Shown here: positions 3,407 through 54,060 of the stretch, one piece after another
Layout: the number at the start of each line of letters is the position of its first letter
Position numbering within the stretch: position 1 is the first letter of the stretch
Sequence record: OQ349392.1
Reading direction: 5' to 3' (one strand)
Source: Escherichia phage KIT06
DNA length: 64,000 nucleotides
Translations under genes and position numbers: made by a program
Notes under the pieces: model-generated
The model's database searches: none
What the model saw: only the letters and a program-made list of their open reading frames with translations
What the model was told of the DNA's origin: nothing

Positions 3407-3479
3407 TGGGAATTAGCCAAGTTGGTAAGGCATAGCACTTTGACTGCTAGATGCAAAGGTTCGAGTCCTTTATTCCCAG
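3407..3479 (+). tRNA. tRNA-Gln (anticodon TTG)
   Basis: Cloverleaf folded by hand: acceptor TGGGAAT/ATTCCCA, anticodon stem TAGCA/TGCTA, loop CTTTGAC, T-loop GGTTCGAGTCC. Confidence 0.85.
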
Positions 3480-3480
3480 C

Positions 3481-3567
3481 GCGAGAATGGTCAAATTGGT
3501 AAAGGCACAGCACTTAAAATGCTGCGGAATGATTTCCTTGTGGGTTCGAGTCCCACTTCTCGCACCA
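3481..3567 (+). tRNA. tRNA-Leu (anticodon TAA)
   Basis: Acceptor GCGAGAA/TTCTCGC, loop CTTAAAA, long variable arm, encoded CCA. Confidence 0.85.
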
Positions 3568-3572
3568 AATTT

Positions 3573-3647
<75 letters not shown>

Positions 3648-3657
3648 ATTTAATTTA

Positions 3658-3731
3658 CTCCGTGTAGCTCAGTTTGGTAGAGCGTCTGCTTTGGGAGCAG
3701 AATGTCGCAGGTTCAAATCCTGCCGCGGAGA
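3658..3731 (+). tRNA. tRNA-Pro (anticodon TGG)
   Basis: Acceptor CTCCGTG/CGCGGAG, loop TTTGGGA, T-loop GGTTCAAATCC; no encoded CCA. Confidence 0.8.
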
Positions 3732-3733
3732 CT

Positions 3734-3823
3734 GGAGGCGTGGCAGAGTGGTTTAATGCACCGGTCTTGAAAACCGGCAGTCGCTCCGGCGACTCATAGG
3801 TTCAAATCCTATCGCCTCCGCCA
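3734..3823 (+). tRNA. tRNA-Ser (anticodon TGA)
   Basis: Acceptor GGAGGCG/CGCCTCC, loop CTTGAAA, long variable arm, encoded CCA. Confidence 0.85.
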
Positions 3824-3828
3824 GTTTT

Positions 3829-3904
3829 GCTGATTTAGCTCAGTAGGTAGAGCAACTCACTTGTAATGAGAAGGTCGGCGGTTCGATTCCGTCAATCAGC
3901 ACCA
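3829..3904 (+). tRNA. tRNA-Thr (anticodon TGT)
   Basis: Acceptor GCTGATT/AATCAGC, loop CTTGTAA, encoded CCA. Confidence 0.85.
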
Positions 3905-3905
3905 A

Positions 3906-3980
3906 GGCCCTGTAGCTGGAAGGTTCAAGCAAGCGACTCATAATCGCCAGATGGTGGTTCAATTCCACCCAGGGCCACCA
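3906..3980 (+). tRNA. tRNA with CAT anticodon (Ile via lysidine as in T4, or Met)
   Basis: Acceptor GGCCCTG/CAGGGCC, loop CTCATAA, encoded CCA; occupies the tRNA-Ile position of the T4 array. Confidence 0.75.
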
Positions 3981-3989
3981 AATTAATTT

Positions 3990-4076
3990 GGGGAGTTATC
4001 CCGTAGAGGTAGCGGTGTGGACTGTAAATCCATTGTCATTGCGACTCGGGTGGTTCGACTCCATCACTCCCCACCA
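3990..4076 (+). tRNA. tRNA-Tyr (anticodon GTA)
   Basis: Acceptor GGGGAGT/ACTCCCC, loop CTGTAAA, long variable arm, encoded CCA. Confidence 0.75.
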
Positions 4077-4080
4077 ATTT

Positions 4081-4155
4081 GGATGTGTAGCTCAATGGCA
4101 GAGCGATCGCCTGTTAAGCGATTGGTTATAGGTTCGAATCCTATCACGTCCGCCA
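4081..4155 (+). tRNA. tRNA-Asn (anticodon GTT)
   Basis: Acceptor GGATGTG/CACGTCC (one G-U), anticodon stem ATCGC/GCGAT, loop CTGTTAA, encoded CCA. Confidence 0.75.
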
Positions 4156-4159
4156 AATC

Positions 4160-4235
4160 CGAGGCATAGCTCAGAAGGAAGAGCAAGGACCTTCTAAGTC
4201 CTAGGTCGTAGGTTCGATCCCTATTGCCTCGACCA
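4160..4235 (+). tRNA. tRNA-Arg (anticodon TCT)
   Basis: Acceptor CGAGGCA/TGCCTCG, loop CTTCTAA, T-loop TTCGATC, encoded CCA. Confidence 0.8.
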
Positions 4236-4604: not shown

Positions 4605-4915
4605 AACCGGGTCGCTACCGGTAAGTCGTCGGACTGATGTTCCCTGGGTAAGGACTGGCATTAACAAATCTTTACGATCTGTTAATGTCCCCTTACATCA
4701 CAGCAGAAACGGCGCACCGAATTATCGATTCGAGGAAATATCTTTGCCGTAAGCCGAGTAGCGTTTTTGACGGAACGTTCGGATATGGTCGAGATATGGC
4801 CTTTTAAAAATATTGAGTAGCGTCAACTACTCAATAACCGGGTTCGAATCCCGGCGTTTCGTACAAACACTTGCCTTAGCAGGTGGAACCCCGACAAGGT
4901 TGCCGCAAGGCTTAG
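4605..4915 (+). ncRNA. structured non-coding region, probably stable RNA species (T4 rnaC/rnaD-like)
   Basis: ~310 bp without ORF, tRNA-like T-arm CCGGGTTCGAATCCCGG at ~4838-4854, ends at a strong terminator; T4 has two stable RNAs beside its tRNA cluster. Confidence 0.4.
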
Positions 4916-4941
4916 CCCCGACCGAAAGGTCGGGGCTTTTT
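4916..4941 (+). terminator. rho-independent terminator (GAAA tetraloop hairpin plus T-run)
   Basis: CCCCGACC-GAAA-GGTCGGGG followed by CTTTTT. Confidence 0.75.
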
Positions 4942-5075
4942 GGCATCTAGGCCTTTCTGGACCTCTCTAGGCATCATTTAGTTTCTACCCTTTATAATAT
5001 ATTATCCTACATTTTAATTGCCCCTCCCTGCCCTAGAATTCCCTAAAACTTTTTAAAAAATTTTTCACAAAACTG

Positions 5076-8583: not shown

Positions 8584-9114
<531 letters not shown>

Positions 9115-9185: not shown

Positions 9186-9503
9186 ATGAAAACGTTTAAA
9201 GAATTTATTGCAGAATCTGCCCAAGGACAACGTGTAGAAGGCGGTTATATCTGGATTGAACAAGTTGAGCCGCCAAGTCGCACTTCTACAGGTAAATGGA
9301 AAATTACTGTTGATGGTCCTGGTGGTAAACGTAGGACTCTTAAAGAAATTAATGGGTACTATGAAGAAGCTCTTTCGGATGCAGGAACTTACATGATGCA
9401 AATCATGATTAAAAACCCTGAAAACCGTTTTGCAGCTAGAGTTTTCCGACGCATCGGTAATAAACTTTATGACGCATACTCTAAAAACTTCCCTAAAGAA
9501 TAA
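9186..9503 (+). CDS. ipII: internal protein II
   Basis: 105 aa with CTS MKTFKEFIAE. Confidence 0.8.
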   Translation: MKTFKEFIAESAQGQRVEGGYIWIEQVEPPSRTSTGKWKITVDGPGGKRRTLKEINGYYEEALSDAGTYMMQIMIKNPENRFAARVFRRIGNKLYDAYSKNFPKE

Positions 9504-9529: not shown

Positions 9530-10108
9530 ATGAAAACGTATCAAGAATTTATTGCTGAAGCTTCTGTAGTAAAGGCCAAAGGCATTAATAAGGACGAGTG
9601 GAACTATCGTGGTGGAAACGGCTTTGACCCTAAAACAGCCCCTATTGAACGATACTTAGCTACAAAAGCTTCCGATTTTAAAGCTTTCGCTTGGGAAGGA
9701 CTTCGCTGGCGTACCGATTTAAATATTGAAGTTGACGGACTTAAATTTGGTCATATTCAAGATGTTGTTGCTAGTAACTTGGACGCAGCTTTTGTTAAAG
9801 CTGACGGTGACCTTCGTCGCTGGAATTTAAAACTATTCTCTAAACAGAAAGGCCCGGTGTTTGTGCCTAAAGCTGGTAAATGGGTTATTGATAATAAATT
9901 AGCTAAGGCTGTCAACTACGCTGGCCTTGAATTCGCCAAGCATAAATCATCATGGAAAGGTCTTGATGCAATGGCCTTCCGTAAAGAATTTGCTGATGTT
10001 ATGGCTAAAGGCGGCTTTAAGGCAGAAATAGATACCTCTAAAGGTACGTTTAAGGACGCTAATGTTCAGTACGCTTATGCCGTTGCTAATGCAGCCCGTG
10101 GTAATTAA
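9530..10108 (+). CDS. ipIII: internal protein III
   Basis: 192 aa with CTS MKTYQEFIAE. Confidence 0.85.
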   Translation: MKTYQEFIAEASVVKAKGINKDEWNYRGGNGFDPKTAPIERYLATKASDFKAFAWEGLRWRTDLNIEVDGLKFGHIQDVVASNLDAAFVKADGDLRRWNLKLFSKQKGPVFVPKAGKWVIDNKLAKAVNYAGLEFAKHKSSWKGLDAMAFRKEFADVMAKGGFKAEIDTSKGTFKDANVQYAYAVANAARGN

Positions 10109-10135: not shown

Positions 10136-10285
10136 TTCAAATAACATGGGAACAACCTGGACCTCATGATTCTATGAGGGATTCCCGCCAACCTGTAATA
10201 AGGTCGAGCCCAAGTGCGGTAATGGGTAAATACAGAAATGGACAATTCATGCGCCATGGAATGGCCCAAATTTAGAGAGAATAAA

Positions 10286-10825
10286 ATGAGAACATTTTTA
10301 ACTGGTCCTTATCTATCCCTGATGAATGCTTTTACACACCATTCTGATGCTAGAGTAGAAGAAATTTGTAAAAACGATTATATCCCACCATTTGAAGACT
10401 TACTCAAACAGTATTGTACACTTCGTTTAGATGGTGGCAGACAATCTGGTAAATCAACTGCAGTAACTAATTTTGCCGCTAATTGGTTATATGATGGTGG
10501 AACAGTTATTGTTCTTTCTAATACTTCAGCTTATGCTAAAATTTCTGCGGGCCACATTAAAAAAGAATTTTCTCGTTATTCTAGCGATGATATTCGATTC
10601 CGCTTATTTACCGATTCTGTCCGTAGTTTTATCGGTAATAAAGGAAGCAAGTTCAGAGGTTTATTGCTTTCGCGAATTTTGTATATAATTGATGATCCTG
10701 TTAAAGCTCCTGATATGGATAAAATTTACGATATTCATATTGAAACTGTGCACCACTGTTGCAATAGTAAATGCTGCATTGGTGGTATTACTCGTCCACA
10801 GTTTTTCATAATCGGAATGCAATGA
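10286..10825 (+). CDS. P-loop NTPase-like protein with C-terminal Cys cluster
   Basis: Walker A GGRQSGKST, Walker-B-like LYIIDD, HHCCNSKCC; ATG 10286 after GAGAGAATAAAATG. Confidence 0.45.
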   Translation: MRTFLTGPYLSLMNAFTHHSDARVEEICKNDYIPPFEDLLKQYCTLRLDGGRQSGKSTAVTNFAANWLYDGGTVIVLSNTSAYAKISAGHIKKEFSRYSSDDIRFRLFTDSVRSFIGNKGSKFRGLLLSRILYIIDDPVKAPDMDKIYDIHIETVHHCCNSKCCIGGITRPQFFIIGMQ

Positions 10826-11151
10826 TGACAGACACGCAACTTTTCGAATATCTTTATTTTTCGCCAAAAACTGTTAAAAATAAATTGGTGAATCATTTTG
10901 AAATTTTGGCAAATAACAACGTCTTGAGCGAATTTTATCCTAAGCAATACAAACTACAAAAAGGTGTATTCAAAGGATGCAGAGTTTTGTGCACTGCTCC
11001 TAATGTAAGATTAATGAATAAAATTCCATATTTTACCATGGAATTTATTGATGGGCCTTTTAAAGGACTAATCACGCAGAGTTTAATGGCATATGATTCT
11101 GAGCCATTTTTAATTAAAGAGCAATCTTGGATAAATTTATTTTCTAATTGA
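10822..11151 (+). CDS. hypothetical protein
   Basis: ATG overlapping upstream TGA (ATGATG). Confidence 0.45.
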
Positions 11152-11159
11152 GAGGTTAT

Positions 11160-11522
11160 ATGAAAGCATATCAAATTCTTGAAGGCACGCATAAAGGTAC
11201 TATTTATTTTGAAGACGGTATTCAAGCACGAATTATTGTCTCTAAAACTTTTAAAGAGGACTCTTTTGTAGACCCAGAAATTTTCTATGGTTTGCATGCC
11301 CGTGAAATTGAAATTGAAACACAACCTACAGTTAAAATTGAAGGTGGTCAACACCTGAACGTTAACGTTCTGCGTCGTGAAACTCTGGAAGATGCAGTTA
11401 AGCATCCGGAAAAATATCCGCAGCTGACCATCCGTGTATCCGGTTATGCAGTTCGCTTTAACTCTCTGACTCCGGAACAGCAGCGCGACGTTATCGCTCG
11501 TACCTTTACTGAGAGTCTGTAA
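11160..11522 (+). CDS. autonomous glycyl-radical cofactor (GrcA/YfiD-like; T4 Y06I-type)
   Basis: C-terminus ...[59 protein letters not shown] with glycyl-radical motif RVSGY; 3' ~190 bp uses host-like GC-rich codons. Confidence 0.8.
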
Positions 11523-11743
11523 TGGCAAAGATAATTATTGAAGGTTCTGAAGATGTGTTAAATGCTTTCGCCGAATGGTTTAGTAATTCAGGCGAACAGC
11601 AATTTAATGAAGCGTGGAACATGGGTGATATTAGTGGAATTTATCCTACGACAGAAATTTCTGTTCAGGGATATGGCATTCATGAGCCTATTCGTTTAAT
11701 TGAATATGATTTGGGTACTGGTGAGGAAGTAAAATATGATTGA
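11522..11743 (+). CDS. hypothetical protein
   Basis: 73 aa, TAATG stop-start overlap. Confidence 0.45.
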   Translation: MAKIIIEGSEDVLNAFAEWFSNSGEQQFNEAWNMGDISGIYPTTEISVQGYGIHEPIRLIEYDLGTGEEVKYD

Positions 11744-12339: not shown

Positions 12340-12801
12340 ATGACTATCAACACAGAAGTTTTTATCCGTCGAAATAAGCTCCGTCGTCACTTTGAGTCGG
12401 AGTTTCGTCAAATTAACAATGAGATTCGTGAGGCATCAAAAGCAGCAGGGGTCTCATCGTTTCATCTAAAATATTCTCAGCATCTTCTTGATCGTGCAAT
12501 TCAACGGGAGATTGATGAGACATATGTTTTTGAATTATTCCATAAAATAAAAGACCATGTTTTAGAAGTTAATGAATTCCTGAATATGCCTCCACGCCCT
12601 GACATTGACGAGGATTTTATTGATGGGATTGAATATCGTCCTGGGCGTTTAGAAATCACAGATGGAAATCTTTGGCTTGGATTTACAGTTTGTAAACCTA
12701 ATGCGAAGTTCAAAGACCCGTCGCTTCAATGCAGGATGGCAATTATCAACAGTCGTCGTTTACCGGGAAAGGCTTCTAAGGCAGTAATTAAAACTCAATG
12801 A
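12340..12801 (+). CDS. regB: RegB endoribonuclease
   Basis: 153 aa MTINTEVFIRRNKLRRHFESEFRQINNEIREASKAAG... as recalled for T4 RegB. Confidence 0.9.
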   Translation: MTINTEVFIRRNKLRRHFESEFRQINNEIREASKAAGVSSFHLKYSQHLLDRAIQREIDETYVFELFHKIKDHVLEVNEFLNMPPRPDIDEDFIDGIEYRPGRLEITDGNLWLGFTVCKPNAKFKDPSLQCRMAIINSRRLPGKASKAVIKTQ

Positions 12802-29073: not shown

Positions 29074-29547
29074 ATGTTATTGACTGGCAAATTATACAAA
29101 GAAGAAAAACAAAAATTTTATGATGCACAAAACGGTAAATGCTTAATTTGCCAACGAGAACTAAATCCTGATGTTCAAGCTAATCACCTTGACCATGACC
29201 ATGAATTAAATGGACCAAAAGCAGGAAAGGTACGTGGGTTGCTATGTAATCTCTGTAATGCTGCAGAAGGTCAAATGAAGCATAAATTCAATCGTTCTGG
29301 CTTAAAGGGACAAGGTGTTGATTATCTTGAATGGCTAGAAAATTTACTTACTTATTTAAAATCCGATTACACCCAAAATAATATTCACCCTAACTTCGTT
29401 GGAGATAAATCAAAGGAATTTTCTCGTTTAGGAAAAGAGGAAATGATGGCTGAGATGCTTCAAAGAGGATTTGAATATAATGAATCTGACACTAAAACAC
29501 AATTAATAGCTTCATTTAAGAAGCAGCTTAGAAAGAGTTTAAAATGA
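29074..29547 (+). CDS. 49: endonuclease VII (Holliday-junction resolvase)
   Basis: 157 aa MLLTGKLYKEEKQKFYDAQNGKCLICQRELNPDVQANHLDHDHELNGPKAGKVRGLLCNLCN... as recalled for T4 gp49. Confidence 0.95.
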   Translation: MLLTGKLYKEEKQKFYDAQNGKCLICQRELNPDVQANHLDHDHELNGPKAGKVRGLLCNLCNAAEGQMKHKFNRSGLKGQGVDYLEWLENLLTYLKSDYTQNNIHPNFVGDKSKEFSRLGKEEMMAEMLQRGFEYNESDTKTQLIASFKKQLRKSLK

Positions 29548-31361
29548 CAATTGAAAAAGAAATTGAAGGATTGATTCATAAAACTAATAAAGACCTTTTA
29601 AACGAGAATGCTAATAAAGATTCTCGTGTTTTTCCAACTCAACGGGACCTTATGGCTGGTATTGTGTCTAAACACATTGCCAAAAATATGGTCCCGTCTT
29701 TTATTATGAAAGCGCATGAAAGCGGAATTATTCATTTCCATGATATTGATTATTCCCCTGCTCTTCCATTTACTAATTGCTGTTTAGTAGATTTAAAAGG
29801 AATGCTTGAGAACGGATTTAAGCTCGGTAATGCACAGATTGAAACTCCTAAATCAATCGGTGTTGCTACTGCAATTATGGCACAAATTACTGCACAGGTT
29901 GCTTCCCATCAATATGGTGGAACGACTTTTGCGAATGTAGATAAAGTACTTTCTCCTTATGTTAAACGCACCTATGCAAAACATATTGAGGACGCAGAAA
30001 AATGGCAAATCGCTGATGCGTTGAATTATGCCCAATCTAAAACAGAAAAAGATGTATACGATGCATTCCAAGCTTATGAATACGAAGTAAATACTCTCTT
30101 TAGTTCAAACGGACAAACGCCTTTTGTAACAATTACATTTGGTACGGGAACTGACTGGACTGAACGAATGATTCAGAAAGCAATTCTGAAAAATCGTATT
30201 AAAGGCCTTGGTCGCGACGGGATAACTCCTATTTTCCCTAAACTTGTTATGTTCGTTGAAGAAGGTGTTAATCTTTATAAAGACGATCCGAACTATGATA
30301 TTAAGCAGCTTGCTCTAGAATGTGCAAGTAAAAGAATGTATCCTGACATCATTTCGGCTAAGAACAATAAAGCTATCACCGGTTCATCTATTCCTGTTTC
30401 TCCAATGGGTTGTCGTAGTTTCTTGGGTGTATGGAAAGATTCGACTGGTAATGAAATTCTTGATGGACGTAATAATCTTGGTGTTGTAACACTGAATCTT
30501 CCTCGCATTGCACTAGATTCTTATATTGGAACACAGTTCAATGAACAGAAATTTGCCGAATTGTTCAATGAGAGAATGGATTTATGTTTTGAAGCATTGA
30601 TGTGTAGAATTAGTTCATTAAAAGGAGTTAAAGCTACTGTTGCTCCTATTCTTTACCAAGAAGGTGCATTCGGGGTTCGTCTTAAACCTGATGACGATAT
30701 AATTGAGTTATTTAAAAACGGTAGAAGTTCAGTGTCTTTGGGATACATTGGTATTCACGAATTGAATATTCTTGTCGGTCGTGATATTGGACAAGAAATT
30801 TTAACTAAAATGAATGCTCATCTTAAGCAGTGGACTGAAAGAACTGGTTTTGCTTTTAGTTTGTATTCGACACCTGCTGAAAACCTGTGCTATCGCTTCT
30901 GTAAACTTGATACCGAAAAATATGGAAGTGTAAAAGATGTTACCGATAAAGGCTGGTACACTAACAGTTTCCACGTTTCAGTAGAAGAAAATATCACTCC
31001 GTTTGAAAAGATTTCTCGTGAAGCACCATATCATTTCATTGCGACAGGTGGTCACATTTCTTATGTTGAACTTCCTGATATGAAAAATAACCTAAAAGGT
31101 CTTGAGGCTGTATGGGATTATGCTGCGCAACATTTAGATTATTTTGGCGTTAACATGCCAGTAGATAAATGTTTTACGTGTGGAAGTACCCATGAAATGA
31201 CTCCTACTGAAAACGGATTTGTTTGTTCTATTTGTGGAGAAACTGATCCTAAAAAGATGAACACAATAAGAAGAACATGCGGATATCTTGGAACTCCTAG
31301 CGTTGTTCCATGGAATTTAGGTAAAATGAAAGAAATGGTAAAACGAGTAAAACATGCATAG
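29544..31361 (+). CDS. nrdD: anaerobic ribonucleoside-triphosphate reductase NrdD
   Basis: 605-aa uninterrupted ORF with C-terminal glycyl-radical motif RRTCGYLG and Cys cluster. Confidence 0.97.
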   Translation: MTIEKEIEGLIHKTNKDLLNENANKDSRVFPTQRDLMAGIVSKHIAKNMVPSFIMKAHESGIIHFHDIDYSPALPFTNCCLVDLKGMLENGFKLGNAQIETPKSIGVATAIMAQITAQVASHQYGGTTFANVDKVLSPYVKRTYAKHIEDAEKWQIADALNYAQSKTEKDVYDAFQAYEYEVNTLFSSNGQTPFVTITFGTGTDWTERMIQKAILKNRIKGLGRDGITPIFPKLVMFVEEGVNLYKDDPNYDIKQLALECASKRMYPDIISAKNNKAITGSSIPVSPMGCRSFLGVWKDSTGNEILDGRNNLGVVTLNLPRIALDSYIGTQFNEQKFAELFNERMDLCFEALMCRISSLKGVKATVAPILYQEGAFGVRLKPDDDIIELFKNGRSSVSLGYIGIHELNILVGRDIGQEILTKMNAHLKQWTERTGFAFSLYSTPAENLCYRFCKLDTEKYGSVKDVTDKGWYTNSFHVSVEENITPFEKISREAPYHFIATGGHISYVELPDMKNNLKGLEAVWDYAAQHLDYFGVNMPVDKCFTCGSTHEMTPTENGFVCSICGETDPKKMNTIRRTCGYLGTPSVVPWNLGKMKEMVKRVKHA

Positions 31362-32184
31362 GTATTATATAATTTATAAAATAACAAATATAATTAATTC
31401 AAAGGAATATATCGGTGCGCATAGCACCGATAACATAAATGACGGTTATATGGGGTCAGGAACATTGATTCGTGCCGCTTTATTAAAATATGGTAGAAAA
31501 AATTTTAATAAAGAAATTTTACATGTTTTTGATAATGAAAAACAAATGTATGATAAAGAAGCTGAACTCGTAACCGAAGAGTATTGTCTAAAAGAAAATA
31601 CATATAATATTAAACCTGGTGGAAAAGGTGGAACTGCCTATGAACAGACACTTGAACATCGCCGCAAAAATAGTTTAGCAAATAAAGGTAAAAAGAGAAC
31701 AGAAGAAACTAAAATAGCTATTTCACGTGCTTTAAAGAAATATAAACGTACGCCAGAGCATCAAGCAAATTTAAATAAAGCCGTAAGCATAGCTATGAAG
31801 CGAAAAGATGTTAGAAGTAAATTAGCTGGAGAGCGGTCTGAGAAAGATAAATTATCTATATCAAACGGTGTTAAAAAATATTACAATTCTTTGAGTGAAG
31901 AAGAACGCGAACTTCATCGCAAGCGAATTATTGAAGGTAAAAAGAATTCTCCCATGTCATTGGAATCTAGACAAAAGCTTTCAAAAGCTTTAAAAGGACT
32001 TCAAGTTGGTTCAAAAAATCCAATGTATGGAAAAATTTCTCCAACTAGCAAAACCGTTTCAGTTGACGGTATTAAATATGATTCAATTAAAAAGTGCTCA
32101 AATGCCATAAAAGTTTCTAGACATCTTATACTAAAACGCTGTAATTCTACTGATGAAGCTTGGAAAAATTGGATATTATTATGA
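31354..32184 (+). CDS. free-standing GIY-YIG homing endonuclease (Seg-like)
   Basis: N-terminal YIIYKITN...EYIGAHS GIY-YIG module; basic C-terminal region with NUMOD3-like GSKNPMYGK; overlaps nrdD stop and nrdG start. Confidence 0.8.
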   Translation: MHRYYIIYKITNIINSKEYIGAHSTDNINDGYMGSGTLIRAALLKYGRKNFNKEILHVFDNEKQMYDKEAELVTEEYCLKENTYNIKPGGKGGTAYEQTLEHRRKNSLANKGKKRTEETKIAISRALKKYKRTPEHQANLNKAVSIAMKRKDVRSKLAGERSEKDKLSISNGVKKYYNSLSEEERELHRKRIIEGKKNSPMSLESRQKLSKALKGLQVGSKNPMYGKISPTSKTVSVDGIKYDSIKKCSNAIKVSRHLILKRCNSTDEAWKNWILL

Positions 32185-32651
32185 ATTATGACAGAATATA
32201 CCCGTGTTGCTTTGTTAACGGTCCTGGGTGCCGAACTGTTCTTTTCGTTACAGGTTGTTTGCATAAATGTGAAGGGTGTTATAATAAATCAACATGGAAT
32301 GCTAGAAATGGCGTTCCATTCACTGGTGAAACACTAGAACAATTAATTAAATGTTTGAATAATGATTATATAGAAGGATTAACTATAACTGGAGGAGACC
32401 CTCTCTATCCAGATAACCGAGATGTTGTTCATTGCATTGTTCAAACAGTAAAAAATCTTTATCCGAATAAAAGCATTTGGTTGTGGACAGGATATAAGTT
32501 TGAAGATATTAAACAACTAGAAATGCTTAAATATGTTGATGTTATTATTGATGGGAAGTATGAGAAAAATCTTCCGACCAAAAAGCTGTGGCGAGGTTCA
32601 GATAATCAGCGACTTTGGTCAAATACCGATGGGGTGTGGAAACATGATTAA
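32181..32651 (+). CDS. nrdG: anaerobic RNR activating enzyme NrdG (radical SAM)
   Basis: MNYDRIYPCCFVNGPGCRTVLFVTGCLHKCEGCYN...; ATG 32181 overlaps the endonuclease stop. Confidence 0.9.
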   Translation: MNYDRIYPCCFVNGPGCRTVLFVTGCLHKCEGCYNKSTWNARNGVPFTGETLEQLIKCLNNDYIEGLTITGGDPLYPDNRDVVHCIVQTVKNLYPNKSIWLWTGYKFEDIKQLEMLKYVDVIIDGKYEKNLPTKKLWRGSDNQRLWSNTDGVWKHD

Positions 32652-52632: not shown

Positions 52633-54060
52633 GTGGTAGAAATTATTCTTTCTCATCTCATATTTGATCAAGCTTATTTTTCAAAAGTTTGGCCATATAT
52701 GGATTCAGAATATTTTGAAAGTGGTCCGGCTAAAAATACGTTCAAATTAATTAAATCTCATGTTAATGAGTATCATAGCGTTCCATCCATTAATGCGTTA
52801 AATGTTGCATTAGAAAATAGTTCATTTACTGAAACAGAATATTCTGGTGTAAAAACACTTATTTCAAAACTAGCCGATTCTCCGGAAGACCACAGCTGGT
52901 TAGTAAAAGAAACAGAAAAATATGTTCAGCAAAGGGCAATGTTTAATGCCACGTCTAAAATAATTGAAATTCAAACTAATGCTGAGCTTCCTCCGGAAAA
53001 ACGAAATAAGAAAATGCCAGATGTAGGTGCTATTCCTGACATCATGCGCCAAGCATTATCAATTTCATTTGATAGTTACGTTGGTCATGATTGGATGGAT
53101 GACTACGAAGCACGTTGGCTATCTTATATGAATAAAGCTCGTAAGGTTCCATTTAAACTCAAAATTCTAAATAAAATTACTAAAGGCGGAGCTGAGACTG
53201 GAACACTGAACGTTTTAATGGCTGGTGTTAACGTTGGTAAGTCATTAGGTCTGTGTTCATTGGCAGCAGATTATTTACAGCTTGGACATAATGTTCTTTA
53301 CATTTCCATGGAAATGGCAGAAGAAGTCTGTGCTAAGCGTATTGACGCTAATATGCTTGATGTTTCTCTTGATGACATTGATGATGGGCATATTTCTTAC
53401 GCTGAGTATAAAGGAAAAATGGAAAAATGGCGTGAGAAATCTACTCTCGGTCGTTTAATCGTTAAACAGTATCCTACTGGTGGAGCAGACGCTAATACAT
53501 TTCGATCGCTTTTAAACGAATTAAAGCTCAAGAAGAATTTTGTTCCAACAATCATTATTGTTGACTATCTAGGTATTTGTAAATCTTGCCGCATCAGAGT
53601 TTACTCAGAAAATAGTTACACAACTGTTAAAGCTATCGCAGAGGAATTGCGTGCTCTGGCTGTTGAAACCGAAACTGTTCTTTGGACTGCAGCACAGGTT
53701 GGTAAGCAAGCTTGGGATTCTTCTGATGTTAACATGAGCGATATTGCAGAATCTGCCGGTCTTCCAGCAACAGCCGATTTTATGCTTGCGGTCATTGAAA
53801 CCGAGGAGTTAGCAGCTGCTGAACAACAACTCATTAAGCAAATCAAATCACGATATGGTGATAAGAATAAATGGAATAAGTTTTTGATGGGTGTTCAAAA
53901 AGGAAATCAGAAATGGGTAGAAATTGAACAAGATTCTACTCCAACTGAAGTGAACGAAGTAGCAGGTTCACAGCAGATTCAGGCTGAGCAGAATCGCTAT
54001 CAAAGAAACGAATCTACTCGAGCCCAGTTAGATGCTTTGGCAAATGAATTAAAATTTTAG
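52633..54060 (+). CDS. 41: replicative DNA helicase gp41
   Basis: 475 aa, GTG start after AAGGAG; Walker A GVNVGKS. Confidence 0.95.
   Translation: MVEIILSHLIFDQAYFSKVWPYMDSEYFESGPAKNTFKLIKSHVNEYHSVPSINALNVALENSSFTETEYSGVKTLISKLADSPEDHSWLVKETEKYVQQRAMFNATSKIIEIQTNAELPPEKRNKKMPDVGAIPDIMRQALSISFDSYVGHDWMDDYEARWLSYMNKARKVPFKLKILNKITKGGAETGTLNVLMAGVNVGKSLGLCSLAADYLQLGHNVLYISMEMAEEVCAKRIDANMLDVSLDDIDDGHISYAEYKGKMEKWREKSTLGRLIVKQYPTGGADANTFRSLLNELKLKKNFVPTIIIVDYLGICKSCRIRVYSENSYTTVKAIAEELRALAVETETVLWTAAQVGKQAWDSSDVNMSDIAESAGLPATADFMLAVIETEELAAAEQQLIKQIKSRYGDKNKWNKFLMGVQKGNQKWVEIEQDSTPTEVNEVAGSQQIQAEQNRYQRNESTRAQLDALANELKF

Follow-up and report, generated by a model that had tools for sequence, protein, structure and literature searches.

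A probable gene-conversion patch from host grcA inside the vs.6 glycyl-radical gene of a T4-type phage

The gene at 11160-11522 of this DNA raises two questions: how a single reading frame in otherwise AT-rich phage DNA comes to carry a 3′ half written in the codons of its host, and what the protein that it encodes would do in an infected cell. Both were addressed within the window, that is, the whole stretch of 64,000 nucleotides (64 kb) that was analysed, and by comparison with bacterial and phage sequences. An initial annotation, made from the letters alone, had proposed a chimeric gene with a recently host-derived 3′ module, the product of which might serve as a spare part for NrdD or for the PFL of the host.

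The window is that of a T4-type phage (Tequatrovirus), in the orientation opposite to the T4 reference record. Judged by sequence and position, the reading frame is the ortholog of T4 vs.6, whose product bears the Swiss-Prot name Y06I. The gene and its parts are as follows.

11160..11522, plus strand: vs.6 / Y06I ortholog, stop codon included, encoding a 120-aa GrcA-type autonomous glycyl-radical protein (ORF, 98.3% amino acid identity to T4 Vs.6, synteny, Pfam Gly_radical, PDB 6owr, PHROG 1209)
11150..11155, plus strand: GAGAGG, Shine-Dalgarno-like, 4 nt before the ATG (read from the sequence; putative function)
11160..11337, plus strand: phage-type 5′ part, comprising codons 1-59 with the initial base of codon 60, an AT-rich diverged homolog of the GrcA N-terminus (GC 0.331, GC3 0.19, no E. 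coli DNA match)
11338..11512, plus strand: probable host-derived conversion tract of 175 nt, coding for the glycyl-radical domain (E. coli grcA identity, dS = 0, 98% bootstrap grouping, host-type codons)
11442..11444, plus strand: GGT codon, Gly95 in RVSGYAV (aligned with G102 of GrcA, 6owr, and G734 of PflB, 1h16)
11513..11522, plus strand: phage-type last 10 nt, the GAG AGT CTG TAA region (differs from bacterial GAA AGC)

In the ORF listing the frame starts with ATG at 11160 and stops with TAA at 11520-11522, and the stop overlaps the ATG of vs.5 (ORF 11522-11743) as TAATG. The phage-type 3′ end, overlapping the vs.5 start, might speculatively also hold the ribosome-binding site of vs.5. The window protein and T4 Vs.6 are of equal length and identical at 118 of 120 residues (98.3%), and RefSeq labels the T4 protein (NP_049730) "autonomous glycyl radical cofactor GrcA". 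The T4 gene order is kept, as seen by tblastn of T4 proteins and from the annotation of T4 and RB51: e ... vs.8, vs.7, vs.6, vs.5 ... regB, vs.1, vs, tk.4. Within this order vs.6 sits between vs.7 and vs.5, downstream of the lysozyme gene e (8620-9114) and upstream of regB (RegB, 12340-12801). A promoter scan around vs.6 returned sites no more frequent than in shuffled sequence, and the terminator and promoter scans together revealed nothing particular to vs.6. Megablast finds the gene in 756 phage records and sensitive blastn in ~1500, including those of T5-like and jumbo phages; at least 80% of the gene is covered in 744 phage records. In one record, that of Salmonella phage Lv5cm (MZ150757), two places match vs.6, perhaps owing to terminal redundancy in the assembly.

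The neighborhood has features of its own. Between e and vs.8 lie a 105-aa ORF (9186-9503) and an IpIII-like ORF (9530-10108, 94% to T4 IpIII), both of which start with MKT(F/Y)(K/Q)EFIAE and resemble internal-protein capsid-targeting leaders in this respect. T4 Vs.8 matches two reading frames (10174-10269 and 10238-10822, within 10174-10825), which suggests a frameshift or another start in the vs.8 of this phage. No homolog of denV or ipII was found in the 64 kb by tblastn with T4 proteins.

At the level of the protein, Pfam Gly_radical matches residues 60-101 (E 2e-18) over profile positions 65-106 only, and no second domain was found beside it in the 120 residues. The best PDB match is GrcA (6owr, E 5e-42), to which the C-terminal 60 residues are identical (60/60), and the initial annotation was thus right about a C-terminal match of ~60 residues to E. 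coli GrcA/YfiD. Residues 697-759 of PflB (1h16) match with an E of 5e-26 and about 76% identity over 63 residues. The product has the marks of the GrcA/YfiD type, namely a small stand-alone protein of about 14 kDa with little beyond the glycyl-radical domain, and RVSGYAV within a PflB-like C-terminal part of ~60 residues; the identity of the radical glycine is taken from PMC8683613. RVSGYAV is common to vs.6 and the C-terminal domain of PflB, which is the piece that the spare part replaces, but vs.6 is of the GrcA type and not of the PflB type (MNREMLLDAMEN), and it is without the catalytic barrel. The NCBIfam equivalog TIGR04365 (spare_glycyl) is still the best-scoring family for the window protein, with model positions 25-126 matched, although its score of 154.6 bits falls below the cut-off of 170 (E. 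coli GrcA scores 233.9) because the N-terminal half is diverged and shortened. The protein is therefore filed as a member of the phage clade (PHROG 1209) of GrcA-type proteins and not as a strict bacterial GrcA equivalog.

The composition of the DNA changes within the gene. GC rises from 0.331 in 11160-11337 to 0.486 in 11338-11522, where the window as a whole has a mean of 0.346, and a GC of at least 0.486 is reached by just 1% of all 185-nt intervals in the stretch. GC3 likewise rises from 0.19 to 0.43 between the 5′ and 3′ halves, whereas 73 background ORFs have a mean of 0.245 and a maximum of 0.39. In the 3′ half, Leu is encoded by CTG in 6 of 6 cases (8.3% in the background), Arg by CGT/CGC in 6 of 6 (background 60%) and Pro by CCG in 3 of 3 (background 15%), a codon choice with a joint chance of ~5e-11. 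The GC-richer 3′ DNA with CTG, CGT and CCG codons that had been described by eye is thus borne out when computed, as 15 of 15 Leu, Arg and Pro codons are CTG, CGT/CGC or CCG, and the start of the shift, which had been put at ~11335, lies within 3 nt of the real junction at 11337/11338.

The other 185-nt intervals that are as GC-rich fall in the tRNA cluster, in the stretch after it and at one spot in a helicase gene. The cluster (3407-4235) holds 10 tRNA genes (Gln, Leu, Gly, Pro, Ser, Thr, CAT-anticodon Met/Ile, Tyr, Asn, Arg). The region after it (4606-5044) is GC-rich and ORF-poor, is conserved in >700 T4-like phage records and has no Rfam family at threshold; it may hold small stable RNAs. 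The third spot (53632-53822) lies within an ORF that is replicative-helicase-like by reading of its translation, and it was ruled out as a second host patch because it has no E. coli DNA match.

The source of the GC-rich half of vs.6 is evident from comparison with E. coli genomes. Segment 11338-11522 is identical to grcA at 183 of 185 positions in all 5426 complete genomes, while its core, 11338-11512, is identical at 175 of 175 positions in many of them and at least 99% identical in 5156 of the 5426. The patch and its E. coli counterpart differ at 0 of about 44 synonymous sites (dS = 0). No DNA match to the 5426 genomes was found for the 5′ half (11160-11337). When the whole 64 kb was compared with the same genomes, the grcA patch was the sole chromosomal match, and a weaker second chromosomal place in each genome lies under the same grcA query segment. 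The sole non-chromosomal E. coli match in the 64 kb is the resemblance of the tRNA-Tyr region (3987-4079) to some plasmids; a tRNA-Tyr in about 260 plasmid records of E. coli (e.g., NZ_CP077546.1) is 90.5% identical to it, and these records may be those of phage-plasmids.

Both ends of the host-like tract lie inside the gene. At the left junction (11337/11338), codons 59-60 read AAA ATT, as in the Klebsiella phages of the genus Jiaodavirus, where all bacteria examined have CGC/CGT GTN. At the right junction (11512/11513), the gene ends in GAG AGT CTG TAA, compared with GAA AGC CTG TAA in bacterial grcA. Among the bacterial grcA genes examined, none has the G at 11513 or the T at 11516, apart from one Klebsiella plasmid copy with AGT, and the GAG AGT state is common to the alleles of Slopekvirus and Enterobacter phage YI837. 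Upstream of the patch, residues 22-59 align with GrcA 28-66 even though the N-terminal half is only about 35% identical to GrcA, and the whole gene is therefore a grcA homolog.

A sharply bounded tract of host identity thus has diverged phage grcA homolog on both sides. Since at least 175 nt of host sequence lie between grcA-homologous flanks of the phage lineage, the tract is best described as a gene-conversion patch within an older phage grcA and not as an illegitimate capture, and vs.6 as a mosaic of two diverged alleles of one gene. The identity at 175 of 175 nucleotides, the sharp junction and the lack of synonymous differences from E. coli strongly support the recently host-derived 3′ module of the initial annotation; neither of the outcomes that would have told against it, a low identity to host grcA or a uniform composition, was seen. 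Its chimeric gene stands in that respect, but not as a fusion of unrelated parts, given the alignment of residues 22-59 with GrcA and the return to phage type over the last 10 nt. T4 Vs.6 resembles the window gene in position, length and mosaic structure with a host-identical 3′ half; the two proteins differ at two residues, and in T4 the patch carries a single non-synonymous change (R73H) and the right end reads GAA AGT TTG. E. coli GrcA (YfiD, 6owr) shares with the window protein its small stand-alone form, the C-terminal 60 residues and 175 nt of DNA, but the phage protein is 7 residues shorter, with an AT-rich N-terminal half, and E. coli grcA lies between ung and eamB whereas the phage gene lies in a string of early-region genes.

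The direction of transfer can be read from the relationships of the patch. It groups with Escherichia grcA at 98% bootstrap (Escherichia, Tequatrovirus and Mosigvirus together), and identity follows host phylogeny downward, from 98.9% in E. coli to 97.8% in Escherichia sp. and 91.8% in Citrobacter. Third codon positions are 97-98% identical to E. coli but 55-76% identical to other genera. Together with the phage-foreign composition, these data indicate that the sequence moved from host to phage, and that the donor was E. coli or Shigella. Movement from phage to host is ruled out by the phylogeny-graded identity and the nesting within Escherichia at 98% bootstrap.

The age of the patch is bounded by the split of Tequatrovirus from Mosigvirus. 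Between the window and Mosigvirus, dS is 0.27-0.44 in the 5′ half and 0-0.10 in the patch. In the small samples of 7 Tequatrovirus and 6 Mosigvirus sequences, the first 178 nt of the gene hold 9 fixed differences between the two genera and the 175-nt patch holds none (Fisher p 0.0035), and the flanking vs.5 and vs.7 proteins are likewise diverged between the genera. The low patch dS and the lack of fixed differences, set against the diverged 5′ half and neighboring genes, indicate that the patch is younger than the split.

A similar mosaic with a different donor is seen in Jiaodavirus, where vs.6 has a like architecture and GC steps up from 0.37 (5′ part) to 0.55 (3′ part). Over gene positions 181-339, identities to the two host genes are as follows.

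Jiaodavirus: 155-157/159 to K. pneumoniae grcA; 139-141/159 to E. coli grcA
Window gene: 139/159 to K. pneumoniae grcA; 159/159 to E. coli grcA

K. pneumoniae and Jiaodavirus group at 75% bootstrap, and 134 records of Klebsiella/Raoultella phages are 90-99% identical to the K. pneumoniae tail, compared with 86-88% for E. coli phages. The K. pneumoniae side of the comparison comes from grcA loci, returned by a metagenome scan, whose product is exactly the K. pneumoniae protein GRCA_KLEP7. The right end point in Jiaodavirus is unlike that of the window gene, as the last 24 nt are phage-type. By these comparisons the Jiaodavirus patch is an independent import from Klebsiella grcA at the same place in the gene, and recent host sequence thus recurs across lineages, with an E. 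coli-type patch in Tequatrovirus and Mosigvirus and a K. pneumoniae-type patch with other end points in Jiaodavirus. In one Jiaodavirus contig from IMG/VR (L121) the phage-type 5′ half seems to be frameshifted, and the Klebsiella-type patch is intact.

A recent host patch was also sought in Karamvirus, Slopekvirus, Krischvirus, Enterobacter phage YI837, T5-like phages, jumbo phages and Haemophilus-type contigs, and none was found. At the DNA level, the closest among about 160 bacterial alleles is 72-87% identical to the copies in these lineages, a figure that is 76-87% for Krischvirus, T5-like phages and Slopekvirus, which infect E. coli or Klebsiella. The protein domain itself is the same in Karamvirus, Slopekvirus, Krischvirus, T5-like phages and jumbo phages. 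Several IMG/VR loci were set aside along the way: L165-L175 are probably bacterial, with PflB-type C-termini; L124 is probably bacterial and resembles a Yersinia-type grcA; and L122, caught by the motif search alone, has an NrdD-like tail.

The reading preferred here, with a probability of roughly 0.8, is that the vs.6/Y06I ortholog is a glycyl-radical spare part, and that the radical-domain segment of this older phage grcA was overwritten from the host by gene conversion. How often such overwriting takes place is a separate matter. Tentatively, and at a little under even odds, we suggest that recurrent conversion from host to phage keeps the radical-domain half in concerted evolution with host grcA, such that lytic T-even phages re-sample the allele of their host genus. 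The competing account holds that a single conversion took place in one T-even lineage and that the patch then spread from phage to phage in co-infections, with no ongoing exchange with the host and with Jiaodavirus as a second single event. T-even phages do recombine freely, and the left junction is common to 13 of 13 Tequatrovirus and Mosigvirus sequences, most of which also have G at gene position 354 and T at 357. The 14 polymorphic sites of the patch in the 7 Tequatrovirus and 6 Mosigvirus sequences are nearly all singletons, and the four variants in phage mar005P1 are absent from E. coli alleles, which indicates that most patch variation is private mutation and fits spread from a single import. 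Spread between phages does not, however, readily explain why the patch moved without the genus-specific markers that adjoin it (gene positions 160-171 and 360); this is expected if donor homology was confined to the patch, as it would be with a host donor. The right end of T4 differs as well (GAA), a CAA/CAG polymorphism at grcA nt 213 is common to E. coli alleles and to phages of both genera, and, at three linked sites, the Jiaodavirus phage Nispero has the variants of a second Klebsiella allele (L180). On balance the single import followed by spread seems unlikely, though it is the most serious of the competing accounts.

Diversity within Jiaodavirus bears on the same point, with a pi of 0.054 in the patch compared with 0.021 in the 5′ half, and almost all changes synonymous. 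The private changes in the Jiaodavirus patch are mostly GC-to-AT, however, so that decay of a GC-rich insert is a rival reading of this excess to repeated import. Of 22 phage patch variants, 20 also occur in a broad bacterial panel, but this panel is close to saturation at third codon positions and the count was set aside as carrying no information. The E. coli-type patch is kept in Tequatroviruses whose isolation hosts were Yersinia, Serratia or Salmonella, and host tracking is therefore not immediate.

A quite different history would have the whole of host grcA captured once, long ago, with fast divergence of the 5′ part, a 3′ half held in place by constraint on the radical domain, and no recent exchange. 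Purifying selection on this domain is indeed very strong, as its C-terminal 60 residues are almost invariant across all sampled bacteria and phages. Constraint on the protein nevertheless cannot preserve synonymous sites: other phage lineages with the same domain protein sequence have a dS above 1 relative to E. coli, whereas none of about 44 synonymous sites has changed in the patch. The abrupt junction, with its jump in GC3 from 0.19 to 0.43, and a patch lacking fixed differences between two genera whose 5′ halves and flanking genes differ also stand against ancient capture, which is highly improbable.

With regard to function, oxygen cuts PflB at its radical glycine, G734 (PMC8683613). In that source, which cites Wagner et al. 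2001, YfiD/GrcA and T4 Y06I are reported to be radicalised by PFL activase, to bind cleaved PflB and to restore its activity. By analogy with the T4 ortholog, to which it is 98.3% identical, the window protein is probably a stand-alone glycyl-radical spare part for PFL. The alternative, that it supplies a spare radical domain for the NrdD of the phage itself, has a parallel in PMC1524935, where a role in nucleotide metabolism was speculated on. The NrdD noted in the initial annotation is indeed encoded in the window (29544-31361), together with its activase NrdG (32160-32651), and NrdD and vs.6 both match Pfam Gly_radical. BLASTP of vs.6 against this NrdD, however, detects no pairwise similarity, the best alignment having an E of 5.9 and missing the radical site, while the domain is identical to that of GrcA, about 76% identical to PflB 697-759 (E 5e-26) and copied from a PFL-specific gene of the host. 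Of the two spare-part roles raised at the outset, the one for host PFL accords with what PMC8683613 reports of the T4 protein, which works with PFL and PFL-AE, and the one for NrdD is very doubtful. Vs.6 and NrdD/NrdG would both fit an anaerobic or microaerobic gut lifestyle. Between nrdD and nrdG, and overlapping both, lies an ORF (31354-32184) with a NUMOD3 motif and an I-TevI-type DNA-binding domain, of the free-standing homing-endonuclease type.

Finally, although contamination with host reads or DNA in assembly or cloning would yield perfect identity to the propagation host, such an artefact can practically be dismissed, as the in-frame mosaic recurs with the same junctions in 744 phage records, those of T4, T2 and RB51 among them, that come from many laboratories, occurs in IMG/VR contigs, reverts to phage type in its last 10 nt where it overlaps the next phage gene, and has a Klebsiella version in Klebsiella phages.

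T4 DNA contains hydroxymethylcytosine, and T-even phages degrade host DNA. Under the preferred reading of gene conversion in an older phage gene, an AT-rich phage grcA homolog would have had its radical-domain segment replaced by chromosomal grcA of the host through homologous gene conversion, with both crossovers within the gene, the left one no later than 11338 and the right one between 11512 and 11516. A plausible route, which we infer entirely, is phage recombination-dependent repair that copies fragments of host DNA. Unconverted phage alleles share exact runs of only 14-20 nt with host genes, and a first import should therefore be rare and later imports easy. Once a patch is present, its perfect homology to the host would ease further conversion, and the domain may then evolve in concert with the host gene.

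In the infected cell, PFL-AE of the host would place the radical on Gly95 of RVSGYAV. The radicalised small protein would bind PflB that has been shorn of its C-terminal radical domain by oxygen and restore its activity, and the rescued PflB would keep up the fermentative supply of acetyl-CoA and ATP. The phage may carry its own copy because host gene expression is shut off and the cell is unable to resupply GrcA or PflB.

The gene and its PFL-rescue function are already known from T4 at textbook level, and vs.6 is not a new system. No published description of its DNA-level mosaic or of host tracking was found, only protein-level, functional and domain work; the main T4 genome review (PMC150520) lay outside this search, so an earlier mention is possible. 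The closest precedent is in cyanophages, where psbA/psbD, metabolic genes carried by T4-like lytic phages, have a patchy G+C and segments exchanged with the host copy (Sullivan et al., 2006, PMC1484495). That paper cites Zeidner et al. 2005 for host-phage intragenic recombination in cyanophage psbA/psbD. The vs.6 patch differs in being a single sharply bounded tract, 100% identical to a named host species, in T-even phages with hydroxymethylcytosine-containing DNA, and in having been overwritten independently in E. coli phages and Klebsiella phages. As for the transfer itself, in T4 marker rescue and plasmid-phage recombination cytosine-containing DNA donates sequence to the T4 chromosome given homology. 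This is a laboratory case with cloned T4 DNA, whereas the donor of the vs.6 patch would be a chromosomal host gene with, at first, only partial homology.

One consequence is practical. The gene grcA has been proposed as a conserved qPCR marker for typing Straboviridae (PMC12845203), and primers placed in its 3′ half would amplify host DNA, because Tequatrovirus and Mosigvirus have an identical sequence in common with the E. coli chromosome there.

In evolutionary terms the gain is new though modest, and it can be tested. A lytic T-even phage carries 175 nt that are letter for letter those of the host chromosome, the sole such stretch in 64 kb, and vs.6 would thereby offer a clean, datable case, beyond that of cyanophage psbA, of a metabolic gene converted in part from host to phage. 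If conversion is recurrent, each import would leave 160-175 nt of perfect host homology and thus ease the next. The allele carried would then follow the host genus, that of E. coli in Tequatrovirus and Mosigvirus and that of Klebsiella in Jiaodavirus, and the diversity of phage patches would mirror that of the host gene. In that event, vs.6 would be a natural and measurable reporter of the copying of host chromosomal DNA by lytic phages.
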